Source of the DNA: Deltaproteobacteria bacterium
Lineage (GTDB): Bacteria; Desulfobacterota; Desulfobacteria; Desulfobacterales; C00003060
Reading direction: 5' to 3'
Length of the DNA stretch: 64,000 nucleotides
NCBI GenBank assembly: GCA_003647275.1
Contig: QMMN01000002.1
Coordinates: forward strand, 21,726-85,725
The notes under the pieces are model-generated. The model searched no databases. It worked only from the letters and a program-made list of their open reading frames with translations, and was not told the origin of the DNA. The translations under genes were made by a program, and so were the position numbers. Shown piece by piece: positions 31,477-62,768 of this stretch. Numbering within the stretch: position 1 is the stretch's first letter; each line of letters starts with the position of its first letter.

Positions 31477-31499
31477 ATAACGGATAACGAATAACGAAC
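31477..31499 (+). repeat. Tandem heptamer array (ATAACGR x3) in the fliD-fliS spacer
   Basis: cATAACGgATAACGaATAACGaacc. It runs straight into the fliS RBS (aagggagg). Confidence 0.7.
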
Positions 31500-31517
31500 C
31501 AAGGGAGGATACGTCAA

Positions 31518-31961
31518 ATGTACGGAAACGGGTTTGATGCTTATCGGCGAACAGATGTGGTCACAGCAGATCCCAAGAAGCTGGTCATCATGTGCTACGA
31601 AGGGGCGATCAGCAATCTGAAAATTGCCAAGGAGAAGTATCTGTCCAGCGAATACGAGGCTAAGGCAAAGGCCATACAAAAGGCGCAGAATATTATAAAT
31701 GAGCTTTTGTGCGCCCTTGATTTTGAAAAAGGCGGCCAGATCGCCAGGAACCTGGAGTCCCTTTATAACTACATGACGCGCCGTGTGCTGCAGGCCGATG
31801 TAAAAAGGGATGTTAAGGGTCTGGACGAAGTGGCCGGGATGCTTGAGGAACTTAAAGAGGCCTGGGAAGAGGCTTTTTATGGGGGCCAAAAAGATATCAA
31901 GATGGGGTCCTATTTATCTGATGAATCAACCGGGCAGGTTGTGTCCACCGTGCATGGATAG
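31518..31961 (+). CDS. fliS: Flagellin-specific export chaperone FliS
   Basis: YRRTDVVTADPKKLVIMCYEGAISNLKIAKE.. and ..ARNLESLYNYMTRRVLQADVKRD. Position after fliD. RBS GGGAGGA. Confidence 0.9.
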   Translation: MYGNGFDAYRRTDVVTADPKKLVIMCYEGAISNLKIAKEKYLSSEYEAKAKAIQKAQNIINELLCALDFEKGGQIARNLESLYNYMTRRVLQADVKRDVKGLDEVAGMLEELKEAWEEAFYGGQKDIKMGSYLSDESTGQVVSTVHG

Positions 31962-32421
31962 CCAGATGATGGAAGCTGAAGAGATCTGTAAGAAATGCTG
32001 TTCCCGCTTACGGGAAAAGACGCGATTGCTGGGAAACTATAACGAGACGACAGCGAAGATCAAGGAGGCGCTTGAATCCAAAGATATTTTGGGATTAGAT
32101 CGCCGATTAAAGGCGCGCCAAGGCCTTATTGACAAAATCGAACAAATTGATAAAGAGATAGATACCCTTACCAGGGGCAATGGTTTTTCAATAGAAAGAC
32201 TGTCGGACAAGTCCAAAGATCTGTTTAGGGGCTATTTTGACCAGATGAGAACCGTCTTGGAACCACTATCTGGTCTGGACAGGGACTGCCTGGACCTGGC
32301 TCAGGCTGAATATGATGGCATGAAATCTGAGATATTGAAGGTGCGACAAGGACTTCGTGTAGCCAGGGGTTATAGGCCGAGATTGCATCAAAGCCCGAGA
32401 TTTTTGGATGTGAAGAGATAA
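31954..32421 (+). CDS. Helical hypothetical protein, possible FlgN/FliT-like flagellar chaperone
   Basis: About 155 aa, predicted all-helical and charged (..KIKEALESKDILGLDRRLKARQGLIDKIEQIDKEIDTL..). The ATG overlaps the fliS stop (ATGGATAG). The assignment rests on position and composition only. Confidence 0.4.
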   Translation: MDSQMMEAEEICKKCCSRLREKTRLLGNYNETTAKIKEALESKDILGLDRRLKARQGLIDKIEQIDKEIDTLTRGNGFSIERLSDKSKDLFRGYFDQMRTVLEPLSGLDRDCLDLAQAEYDGMKSEILKVRQGLRVARGYRPRLHQSPRFLDVKR

Positions 32422-32431
32422 CCAACAACAA

Positions 32432-32455
32432 ATTGACTAAGCTATTGACTAAGCT
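32432..32455 (+). repeat. Tandem 12-mer (attgactaagct x2) in the spacer before flaG
   Basis: attgactaagct occurs at 32432-32443 and again at 32444-32455. Confidence 0.8.
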
Positions 32456-32476
32456 TAAGAAAAGAATTAGAAAGGG

Positions 32477-32842
32477 ATGATATCCGTGTTGGTCGAACCA
32501 ATTTCAGTACCAAAACCTCAAATGGATCCCACATCGGCTGTCGGGCCGAAGTCAAAAGGTCCGGACCCGCCAAAAGAACCAGAGCGGTCACCGGTGAAGA
32601 AGGAAGAGAAAATAGAAGATGCTGAATTCCTTCAAGACATGTTGGAAGTTGCCCAAAAGCATTTTAATGTTCAGAATATTGGGCTTGAGTTTGCCGTGGA
32701 TGGTGGGACCGGTCGGATTAAGGTAACAGTGCTCGACAAAGAGACAGGGGAAATAGTCCGAGAGGTTCCGCCCCAGCAGGTGTTAGACCTGATGGCAAAG
32801 ATTGACGAAATGATGGGGATTCTCTTTGACCACAGGGCCTAA
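32477..32842 (+). CDS. flaG: FlaG family flagellar protein
   Basis: The C-terminal half is NIGLEFAVDGGTGRIKVTVLDKETGEIVREVPPQQVLDLMAKIDEMMGILFDHRA, the typical FlaG (PF03646) pattern. Confidence 0.8.
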   Translation: MISVLVEPISVPKPQMDPTSAVGPKSKGPDPPKEPERSPVKKEEKIEDAEFLQDMLEVAQKHFNVQNIGLEFAVDGGTGRIKVTVLDKETGEIVREVPPQQVLDLMAKIDEMMGILFDHRA

Positions 32843-32845
32843 TAC

Positions 32846-61928: not shown

Positions 61929-61939
61929 ACAAAGTTGCC

Positions 61940-61988
61940 AATAACCAGTAACGAGTAACCAATGACCAATGACAAACGACAGATAACG
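61940..61988 (+). repeat. Tandem heptamer array (7 units: AATAACC AGTAACG AGTAACC AATGACC AATGACA AACGACA GATAACG) in the fliK-flgD spacer
   Basis: An exact 7-nt period over 49 nt that ends at the flgD RBS (aaaggga). Confidence 0.85.
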
Positions 61989-62002
61989 AAAGGGATAAGA
62001 CC

Positions 62003-62680
62003 ATGTCTATAGCAGCGCTTGGACCAACCTATATCAGTGAGGATGAGACGACACGTTATACCAGCCCGAAAGATGTCTTGGGTCGAGATCAATTCCTGAC
62101 CCTGCTGGTAGCCCAGCTTCAACATCAAGATCCCTTAAACCCCCTGGAAAGCACGGAGTTTACCGCGCAACTGGCCCAGTTCTCCAGCCTTGAACAGTTG
62201 TTTTCGATAAACGAGAACCTGATGAATATTCAAGAAGGGATCCGCTCACAGGAATACGGGGATATCCTTGGCTATATCGGGAAGACAGTAAAGACAACGG
62301 ATAATACGATTCAAGTAAGCAATGGCACAATGGAATCAGGCTCCTATACCCTGGAGGATCGGGCCGATGTGGCCGTTTTTATATACGATAGCGACGGCAT
62401 GGAGGTCCGAAGGCTCTATCCGGGCTGGCAGGATCCTGGTGAGCATGCGCTCGCCTGGGACGGCAAAGACAATACAGGCGACAAGGTGGCGGATGGCACT
62501 TACACCTTTGAGATCGAAGCTCGGAATGAAAGAGGTGCCATTGTTCCTTACAGCACTTATTTAACGGGAGAGGTTACGGGTGTGACCTATCAAGGCGGTA
62601 TCCCCTATCTGATGATCGGGGATCAGTTGGTGACACCTGAAAACATTGTAGAGGTTACGAAAACAGTGGCAGGGCAGTAA
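62003..62680 (+). CDS. flgD: Flagellar hook assembly (capping) protein FlgD
   Basis: LGRDQFLTLLVAQLQHQDPLNPLESTEFTAQLAQFSSLEQL. FlgD Ig-like part: HALAWDGKDNTGDKVADGTYTFEI. Confidence 0.9.
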   Translation: MSIAALGPTYISEDETTRYTSPKDVLGRDQFLTLLVAQLQHQDPLNPLESTEFTAQLAQFSSLEQLFSINENLMNIQEGIRSQEYGDILGYIGKTVKTTDNTIQVSNGTMESGSYTLEDRADVAVFIYDSDGMEVRRLYPGWQDPGEHALAWDGKDNTGDKVADGTYTFEIEARNERGAIVPYSTYLTGEVTGVTYQGGIPYLMIGDQLVTPENIVEVTKTVAGQ

Positions 62681-62690
62681 CCAACAGGAA

Positions 62691-62726
62691 GTGCCTAAAG
62701 TGCCTAAAGTGTCTAAAATGCCTAAA
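62691..62726 (+). repeat. Tandem 9-mer array (GTGCCTAAA x4, slightly degenerate) in the flgD-flgE spacer
   Basis: gtgcctaaa gtgcctaaa gtgtctaaa atgcctaaa. Confidence 0.85.
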
Positions 62727-62740
62727 ATTACAAACTCAAA

Positions 62741-62768
62741 TGACTAGTGACCAATGACCAATGACCAG
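62741..62768 (+). repeat. Tandem heptamer array (TGACYAR x4) in the flgD-flgE spacer
   Basis: tgactag tgaccaa tgaccaa tgaccag, ending 10 nt before the flgE RBS (aaagggggga). Confidence 0.85.

Follow-up and report, generated by a model that had tools for sequence, protein, structure and literature searches.

Why are the spacers between the flagellar genes of a bacterium occupied by short tandem arrays, most of them built from 7-nt units, and do these arrays have a role in the expression of the genes that they separate? The question is raised by a 64,000-nt stretch of DNA from a Deltaproteobacteria bacterium (assembly GCA_003647275.1, contig QMMN01000002.1, positions 21,726 to 85,725; the whole stretch is called 'the window' below), for which an original prediction had tabulated eight arrays and listed as possible explanations binding platforms for an RNA-binding regulator, ribosome-release or re-initiation spacers, slippage-prone phase-variable spacers, or an idiosyncrasy of the organism. 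It is well supported that the arrays belong to the class of intergenic tandem heptamer repeats (the STRR/TAACTGA type), and comparison with related loci reveals a patchy lineage trait that is no property of flagellar operons as such. The explanation towards which we lean, at little better than an even chance for it as a whole, combines an origin by slippage, selection that depends on position and an action at the RNA level.

The FliI protein of the window assigns it to an uncultured member of the Desulfobacterales, the best species representative being 84% identical, and the sequence of the window is contained in NODE_77 (129.7 kb) of ENA ERZ1742239. Gene names were checked by Pfam (fliC, fliD, fliS, flaG, flgC, fliE-K and flgD), and the remaining genes comprise a flagellin-glycosylation island, chemotaxis genes and sigma-54 activators. 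Repeats were called by Tandem Repeats Finder (TRF) on the window and by a purpose-made detector for periods 4-15; these calls, together with predicted folds, give the following catalogue.

27649-27667, + strand: weak AAGGCNT x2.7 array (TRF), directly 3' of the fliC stop codon and followed by a strong terminator hairpin.
31477-31498, + strand: ATAACGA x3.1 array in the fliD-fliS spacer (TRF).
32432-32455, + strand: 12-mer ATTGACTAAGCT x2 upstream of flaG (TRF, 100% match).
47024-47054: 14-mer ACAACGGACTACTG x2.2 repeat upstream of a TPR gene.
52787-52808, + strand: ATCATGA x3.3 array beginning at the fliE stop codon (TRF).
52863-52890, + strand: GTATCAG x4 array in the fliE-fliF spacer (TRF; fold of the spacer z = -2.0).
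56288-56374, + strand: predicted hairpin with a stem of ~30 bp, formed by two inverted heptamer arrays between fliH and fliI (fold).
56289-56318, + strand: GTCATTA x4.3 array, antisense form of the family and 5' arm of this hairpin (TRF, fold).
56328-56377, + strand: ATGACCA/GTGACCA/ATGACTA x7.1 array, sense form and 3' arm of the hairpin (TRF, fold).
58153-58184, + strand: CAGTAGG x4.6 array of the stop-side G-rich type, with the fliJ stop codon (58170-58172) inside it (TRF).
61938-61981, + strand: degenerate CAATAAC/CAGTAAC/CAATGAC/AAACGAC heptamers that fill the fliK-flgD spacer up to the ribosome-binding site (TRF gives two overlapping rows, 61938-61973).
62689-62726, + strand: 9-mer GTGCCTAAA x4.2 array after the flgD stop codon (TRF).
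62739-62767, + strand: ATGACTA/GTGACCA/ATGACCA x4.1 array before flgE (TRF, as AATGACC x4.1).

All eight arrays tabulated originally were recovered at the same places by TRF. The scan of periods 4-15 returned 11 raw hits of period 7, as against 0-1 for any other period; 10 of the 11 are intergenic, and the eleventh overlaps the final codons and the stop codon of fliJ. After merging, seven strict period-7 arrays remain, compared with 0.13 expected (maximum 2) from 200 block shuffles of the window. The absence of comparable arrays from coding sequence was confirmed, with 0 strict period-7 arrays within ~57 kb of coding DNA. In addition, the array sequences are identical across three independent assemblies (ENA ERZ1742239, Logan SRR6823441 and JGI 3300033141), and thus they are not an assembly artefact; the Logan locus, L002, is 100% identical to the window and hence uninformative on polymorphism.

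Some details of the original prediction needed correction. Arrays do lie at the gene junctions, but 'nearly every' junction was too generous: strict arrays occupy 6 of the 18 flagellar spacers of at least 25 nt, and ~9-11 of the 18 spacers in the flagellar structural operons when weaker arrays are counted too. A small repeat does follow the fliC stop codon, although AAGGCNT x2.7 describes it better than TAAGG x4; the stretch 27647-27740 folds with -43.1 kcal/mol (z = -4.4) and holds the terminator at 27700-27735. The 14-mer repeat exists as well, at 47024-47054 upstream of a TPR gene rather than after the last TPR-glycosyltransferase gene. It had been missed that the two arrays between fliH and fliI stand in inverted orientation to one another.

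A survey of 80 FliI loci with one and the same period-7 detector, plus further species of the clade fetched through FlgD homologues (L088/L089, L216, L213, L085 and L214), revealed that high array density is confined to a few relatives of the window species. There are 16 arrays in 16 kb of L003, the closest relative in the FliI survey, ~12 in 17 kb of L088 and at least 14 in 16 kb of L216; the short contig L213 holds two. FliI relatives at 79-70% identity have 0 arrays, the background being ~0.1 per 10 kb, and L004-L009, L012 and ~70 other FliI loci have ~0-1 each. The sister lineages L085 and L214 are array-poor, with 2-3 degenerate units only, and, judged by five flagellar proteins, the window species is about as far from L003 as from L085 (the distance of L088 comes from FlgD and FlgE only). 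Therefore, these distances and counts indicate a lineage-specific trait that was gained or lost at about the genus level, so the idiosyncrasy proposed originally is supported at the level of a lineage, in which three relatives are array-rich and ~75 other loci have nearly none.

The arrays are also restricted locally. In a ~82 kb composite of the window and loci L210 and L001, arrays occur in 6 of 18 flagellar-operon spacers and in 0 of 27 others (Fisher p = 0.002), the latter being spacers of glycosylation, chemotaxis and regulator genes. Locus L217 extends the readable sequence downstream to a total of ~91 kb in one contig, all of it flagellar, chemotaxis or glycosylation genes; the upstream extension (9 kb) adds more glycosylation genes without arrays, and the 18 kb downstream are flagellar throughout. 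The flagellin-glycosylation island itself (~35 kb; window 1-26118, L210 1-10000 and L218) contains 0 heptamer arrays and encodes Maf/MptE-like proteins, many TPR-glycosyltransferases, a sulfotransferase and a B12-radical SAM enzyme. Because its gene content differs in the strain of GCA_019308845.1, where a neighbouring FAD protein is 98% identical, the island may be a recent acquisition.

Within spacers, the composition of an array depends on where it lies. Among 46 arrays from three species, those abutting the upstream stop codon (stop-proximal) have a median G fraction of 0.38, as opposed to 0.13 for those ending within 25 nt of the next start codon (start-proximal; Mann-Whitney p = 3e-5), and the A fraction is 0.29 compared with 0.48 (p = 5e-4). 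Spacers of the array-free relative L085 lack this polarity. The two types are related by orientation, since the stop-side units TGGTCAG, GTCATTA and CAGTAGG are reverse complements of the start-side units CTGACCA, TAATGAC and CCTACTG. Across spacers, T[GA]AC and its complement stand at 38:79 in stop-side halves and at 95:38 in start-side halves, with units of one array counted separately and so not independent.

At the stop side, two arrays of the window take in the upstream stop codon, as had been noted: that of fliJ lies inside its array, and the ATCATGA array starts at that of fliE. The claim that arrays end near the next ribosome-binding site also stands, with four of them ending 18-22 nt before a start codon (fliS, fliI, flgD and flgE); the distance is 10-22 nt in L003 and L088. 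For example, the ATAACGA array and the flgE-leader array both stop 19 nt short of the next start (fliS and flgE, respectively), each directly 5' of its ribosome-binding site (AAGGGAGGA and AAAGGGGGGAG). Eighteen nt separate the end of the fliH-fliI sense array from the called fliI start (56396), and an A/C-rich tail (AATAACC..GAATAACGAACAAC) lies between the GTATCAG array and its ribosome-binding site. The commonest unit, ATGACCA/ATGACTA, precedes fliI, flgD, flgE and flhA. Orthologous fliK-flgD spacers carry AATGACA arrays in L003, L088 and L213, and the 9-mer element of the flgD-flgE spacer has an inverted 9-10-mer version in L003 and L088.

Predicted RNA structure follows the same division. 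Modelled folds indicate that spacers containing both array orientations form very stable hairpins: the fliH-fliI hairpin has a predicted energy of -51.5 kcal/mol (z = -6.1, matched by 0 of 200 shuffles), the corresponding L003 spacer one of -117 kcal/mol (z = -6.1), and in L088 similar values were obtained for fliR-flhB (z = -7.2), fliQ-fliR (z = -6.4) and flgE-motA (z = -6.4), where the outermost arrays pair. Other leaders are predicted to be open. The flgD-flgE spacer has z = +3.1, all of its 200 shuffles folding at least as well, fliD-fliS is less structured than its shuffles (z = +1.5), fliK-flgD reaches only -3.9 kcal/mol, and the L003 flgE leader (z = +1.6) has a fully open centroid. As 6-copy RNAs, 12 of 14 start-side units are structure-free, compared with 31% of all heptamer classes. 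The fliH-fliI spacer of the array-free L085 is somewhat structured (z = -1.9), which hints that a junction keeps its character even as its sequence diverges. A search of the whole window with Rfam covariance models gave 0 matches at gathering score.

Orthologous spacers turn over quickly. Between species they differ greatly in length and units (for fliH-fliI, 119 nt in the window as against 382 nt in L003). In the flgE leader, however, all seven species aligned have AATGACN/AATAACN heptamers (2-6 copies) in a common register directly 5' of a conserved AAAGGAGGGAGAYAAAATG, so that alignment of relatives, which the original prediction had suggested, did uncover a retained feature. The rest of this spacer is unalignable among the seven, and the FlgD proteins of the species that share the register are only 64-73% identical to that of the window. 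From sequence comparison, this register is the strongest indication of selection.

Between strains the arrays are stable. Between the window-species strains L001 and L083, 20.7 kb of sequence contain 54 substitutions (0.26%) and a single 4-nt indel, which lies outside the arrays; none of the ~10 arrays compared differs in length. L085, L086 and L087 are identical across their arrays. An apparent difference in spacer length between L085 and L086 was a matter of gene calling, the DNA being identical; the flgE start was called 15 codons apart on the same sequence (10736 in L085 and 7152 in L086). On the practical side, heptamer units that contain ATG mislead start-codon calling, and the longest fliI open reading frame likewise begins within the array at 56363, where the gene caller picked 56396. 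The ATGACCA unit includes AUGA, an overlapping start and stop, and three units make up a mini-reading frame, MTNDQ*.

One strain pair, L088 and L089 (0.51% divergent), does differ, by one 21-nt indel of three GGGAGCA units (L088 about 689) inside an open reading frame for a hybrid histidine kinase. The same frame has AATCATC x9 (L088 458-523; 63 nt, in frame, giving NHQSSII repeats) in a loop of the receiver domain; therefore, heptamer arrays can invade coding sequence in multiples of 21 nt. These strains also differ by a 108-nt tandem-repeat indel in fliK (L088 about 5745, L089 about 5498; FliK of 729 and 688 aa), which could alter hook length, FliK being the hook-length ruler.

In the explanation that we favour, arrays would originate by slippage-type expansion and contraction of 7-nt units, with 7-nt steps tolerated only where no frame is broken, that is in non-coding DNA or as 21-nt multiples in protein loops. 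Lying in sigma-54-driven polycistronic flagellar transcripts, the arrays would act at the RNA level, and selection would sort them by position. Sense T(G/A)AC arrays, A/C-rich and G-poor, placed 10-22 nt upstream of starts would create a structure-free leader by the ribosome-binding site, which may be a standby or landing region for the ribosome, possibly also a site for ribosomal protein S1 or a different protein that binds single-stranded RNA, and which would make initiation at each cistron independent of the cistron beside it. Next to the upstream stop codon, the complementary G-rich orientation would accumulate, and both orientations together would pair into stable intercistronic hairpins, as predicted for fliH-fliI, that are likely to be elements of mRNA processing, stability or translational decoupling, functionally analogous to REP/BIME stem-loops. 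Copy number and unit would drift fast between species, and the character of a junction, open leader or hairpin, would tend to persist. A platform for an RNA-binding factor, as the original prediction had it, or for translation initiation is compatible with the A/C-rich unstructured arrays directly 5' of ribosome-binding sites and with the register kept in seven species. Of the functional directions considered it has the best support, although the analysis identified no factor that binds.

Several points weigh against this explanation. Its functional steps are all inferred, the host organisms being uncultured. Long arrays are dispensable, given that L085 and L214 manage with 2-3 degenerate units. 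That start-side units are unstructured is due largely to their A/C-rich composition and not to the specific unit, as seen in the composition-matched control run for the 6-copy folds. Not every flgD leader is open, because the L088 fliK-flgD spacer has both orientations and is structured (z = -2.9), and the fliI start behind its hairpin has no recognisable ribosome-binding site, which an open leader leaves unexplained. The sorting by orientation, besides its reliance on non-independent counts, varies among species: L088 and L216 show it strongly, the window only as a trend (p = 0.08) and L003 not at all. Finally, slippage plus sorting does not account for local confinement to flagellar spacers, unless the glycosylation island was recently acquired.

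A purely neutral origin is a serious rival, even though we consider it unlikely: a quirk of replication or repair in this lineage, with frequent 7-nt slippage, would leave functionless arrays wherever they are harmless, and the positional bias in composition would be only what the vicinity of a ribosome-binding site tolerates. Such an origin would accommodate the many unrelated unit sequences with periods of 7-10, the fast turnover between species and the near absence of arrays from close relatives, the in-frame 63-nt and 21-nt arrays within the L088/L089 kinase gene, and the dominance of period 7 in unrelated array-rich metagenome contigs of 35% to 72% GC; it also agrees with the polymerase-related 7-nt slippage proposed by Mrazek, as related in PMC4679880. 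What speaks for more than this is the flgE-leader register kept in seven species with FlgD identities of only 64-73%, the significant stop-side/start-side polarity that the array-free relative lacks, the stability between strains and the restriction to flagellar structural operons despite 27 other spacers. In another rival, the T(G/A)AC heptamers would be tandem sites for a specific RNA- or DNA-binding protein or for a complementary small RNA, through which the flagellar structural genes would be co-regulated post-transcriptionally. In its favour, arrays are locally enriched in flagellar operons, and one unit family precedes fliS, fliI, flgD, flgE and flhA in the window species; in L003 it precedes fliE, flgD and flgE. 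Precedents for a dedicated regulator include the regulator network that MacGregor proposed for TAACTGA (PMC4679880) and the changed activity of a regulated reporter after deletion of a heptamer array at Nostoc recO (bioRxiv 10.1101/2022.06.06.494920). The diversity of the units exceeds what one sequence-specific binder could recognise, the window yielded no candidate protein, like arrays flank the housekeeping genes folD, carB and recQ in other phyla, and no Rfam family matched, so a dedicated regulator is doubtful.

Two further proposals, both from the original prediction, fare worse. If the arrays were three-frame stop or ribosome-release spacers, their units would have been selected for TAA, TAG or TGA, and indeed 9 of ~10 window units have a sense-strand stop triplet (judged by eye, not computed), the commonest unit family begins T(G/A)A and, as described above, two arrays take in a stop codon. 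Over the 46 arrays, however, stops in all three frames occur in 20 on the sense and 15 on the antisense strand, eight arrays have no sense-strand stop, and stops are lacking from units such as GTATCAG and AATCAAC, so the observation is not a general rule because stops are not clearly strand-specific; we regard this proposal as very improbable. Hardly more than negligible, and least credible of all, is the view that the arrays are phase-variable contingency loci whose copy-number slippage switches or tunes flagellar genes within populations. Flagella act as surface antigens, such switching classically works through tandem repeats, and L088 and L089 are set apart by a 21-nt, three-unit indel. 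Yet comparison of unit number between strains showed no length polymorphism, with ~10 arrays at the same copy number across 54 substitutions in 20.7 kb and the trio L085, L086 and L087 alike. The stability of array lengths between strains 0.26% apart thus argues that the arrays are not phase-variable, and they are short (3-7 copies), degenerate and placed between cistrons, not in promoters or 5' coding regions.

Knowledge of tandem heptamer repeats in cyanobacteria dates from about 1990, and we know of no function established for them. STRR2, which we take to be TTGGTCA, would be the reverse complement of TGACCAA. The window arrays share the traits of this class: a 7-nt head-to-tail unit (typically 2-10 copies in the class), a non-coding location, forward orientation upstream of starts, a shared unit and patchy occurrence among lineages. 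CRISPR was dismissed, there being no spacers between units. Earlier descriptions from two other phyla cover both the unit family and its placement, and the occurrence in Desulfobacterales is a new instance; within the library searched, no paper on heptamer arrays in Desulfobacterota was found. In marine Beggiatoaceae, giant sulfur bacteria for which such repeats were described in 2015, TAACTGA forms intergenic direct repeats in forward sets of 2-6, a few nt from start codons or ribosome-binding sites, which in the BOGUAY genome are predicted to be unstructured as RNA and are patchy and lineage-restricted, with occasional reverse-orientation sets near the upstream open reading frame and one indirect repeat (PMC4679880). 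TAACTGA fits the same T-R-A-C-Y-R-A pattern as the window units; TRF found no TAACTGA arrays in the window, and TAACTAA, TAACCAA and TAACGAA units occur in the arrays examined. There are also differences, because BOGUAY has essentially one unit, with related heptamers rare, whereas many units coexist in the window lineage, where strong ribosome-binding sites follow the arrays and inverted, hairpin-forming arrays are frequent. Flagellated Desulfobacterales are not among the groups listed in PMC4679880.

In Nostoc PCC 7120, GAC(C/T)AAT x8 overlaps the recO start codon, and its deletion altered the activity of a regulated reporter, for which an unidentified binding partner was postulated (bioRxiv 10.1101/2022.06.06.494920). 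GACCAAT and GACTAAT are rotations of the window units ATGACCA and ATGACTA, and the placement up to or into a start codon is shared. Several heptamer families coexist both among cyanobacterial STRRs and in the window lineage; the Nostoc repeats, however, belong to another phylum, some lie in promoters and affect transcription-factor binding, and a genome-wide distribution is established for cyanobacteria, compared with ~91 kb here. As summarised in PMC4679880, a survey of repeats of 5-11 nt by Mrazek et al. (2007) found heptanucleotides to be commonest and phylogenetically scattered, with units that are not multiples of three excluded from coding sequence; in that summary it concerns abundance only, with no position-dependent orientation or composition in operon spacers. 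Cyanothece strains are reported to differ by indels in 7-nt steps. PMC4679880 also cites the AGAT repeats of Moraxella uspA2, which lie in the 5' UTR, between the promoter and the start codon, and can tune expression. Repeats of this phase-variable kind vary in copy number between strains and lie in promoter spacers or 5' coding regions, unlike the window arrays, which are constant at 0.26% divergence and lie between cistrons downstream of sigma-54 promoters.

The predicted hairpins of fliH-fliI, fliQ-fliR and fliR-flhB resemble stable intercistronic stem-loops of another kind. Enterobacterial REP/BIME sequences are transcribed intra-operon stem-loops able to set differential expression within an operon, and the REP elements, linked to RAYT transposases, are scattered copies of an imperfect palindrome of ~35 nt. 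Unlike REP, the stems here are formed by tandem heptamers in opposite orientations, and a 13-mer sharing analysis for a dispersed palindromic consensus found only a 46-nt duplicate in L003, the other shared words being coding.

What is new here is the stop/start polarity, the hairpins from inverted arrays and the flgE-leader register in seven species. Together with hairpin z values of -6 to -7, the seven-species comparison provides handles that were missing from earlier descriptions of single genomes. The same unit in the same placement relative to start codons in a third, physiologically unrelated group, flagellated relatives of sulfate reducers, widens the phenomenon, and its occurrence in Desulfobacterales argues against explanations tied to the biology of cyanobacteria or Beggiatoa. 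A bolder reading, slightly more doubtful still than a dedicated regulator, is that the arrays constitute a position-coded RNA grammar of the flagellar operons of this clade, in which sense T(G/A)AC heptamers ahead of ribosome-binding sites and their complements after stop codons would be read by a dedicated factor or would pair in cis, and that they are part of a horizontally spread post-transcriptional system. If so, the arrays would couple or uncouple the translation of neighbouring cistrons and thereby set subunit stoichiometry, and the heptamer shared with cyanobacteria and Beggiatoaceae would reflect horizontal spread and not convergent slippage.

The transcriptional context of the arrays is given by sigma-54-type promoter motifs, of which the window has four matches compared with 0.47 expected; two precede the gene strings concerned.

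47098-47112, + strand: sigma-54-type promoter upstream of the TPR gene, a second sigma-54 activator gene and the flgB-to-fliJ string.
60252-60266, + strand: sigma-54-type promoter TGGCAT-N5-TTGC upstream of fliK (motif match).

In the array spacers neither sigma-70 promoter-like sites nor intrinsic terminator-like sites are in excess over background, and since the arrays lie downstream of sigma-54 promoters without such an excess they are taken to be intra-operonic, so these spacers are presumably transcribed within operons. Shortly after a sigma-54 activator gene, and ~45 nt ahead of the promoter at 47098, comes the 14-mer repeat at 47024-47054, a candidate enhancer-binding site.

Other repeats were seen in the related loci. 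In L003, an 8-mer, ATTGAGGG x22 (763-939, 177 nt), fills the fliE-fliF spacer, and a related 8-mer array lies at 12331-12381 of L088. A 46-nt exact duplicate of L003, ACTTTAGGCACTTTAGTTCACTTTAGGCACTCCGTTATTGACCAAT, stands before fliE (352-397) and before flgD (10905-10950), which suggests, from the sequence, gene conversion or a small mobile module; its CACTTTAGG repeat is also present in L088 and, inverted, at 62689-62726 of the window.

A scan of metagenome contigs for CAGTAGG x2.7 returned at least 120 stretches, and 80 loci (L090-L169) were fetched. Their GC content, 35% to 72%, ruled out CAGTAGG as a lineage-specific probe, the number of hits being unremarkable for the size of the database; among the matches listed, none was from the JGI samples of the window species. 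In these 80 loci other heptamer arrays occur at ~10x background density (non-query arrays: 83 of period 7, 29 of period 6 and 14 of period 8), and convergent spacers are favoured over divergent ones, 15 vs 1, by crude calls of open reading frames. The orientation of CAGTAGG relative to flanking genes (37 sense vs 22 antisense, p = 0.07) is not significantly biased, and many cases that seemed antisense within a reading frame were spurious frames through the stop-free strand. In array-rich metagenome contigs other than the loci of this clade, genes with arrays beside them include folD, queA, carB, recQ and similar ones.

Three neighbouring features of the window are also of note. Two small reverse-strand genes (58904-59398, - strand, 164 aa; 59696-59899, - strand, 67 aa), with no Pfam hit on record, break the flagellar operon between an MgtE_N-like gene and fliK; their position is kept in L088 and L216, L085 has one of them, and they are bracketed by inverted repeats of the GCATAGGG type, with repeats at about 58840-58920. 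The filament cap protein FliD (27891-31427) is 1178 aa long, the usual length of FliD being less than half of this. A sigma-28-type promoter, TAAAG-N15-GCCGATAA, lies upstream of fliC at about 26228-26252.

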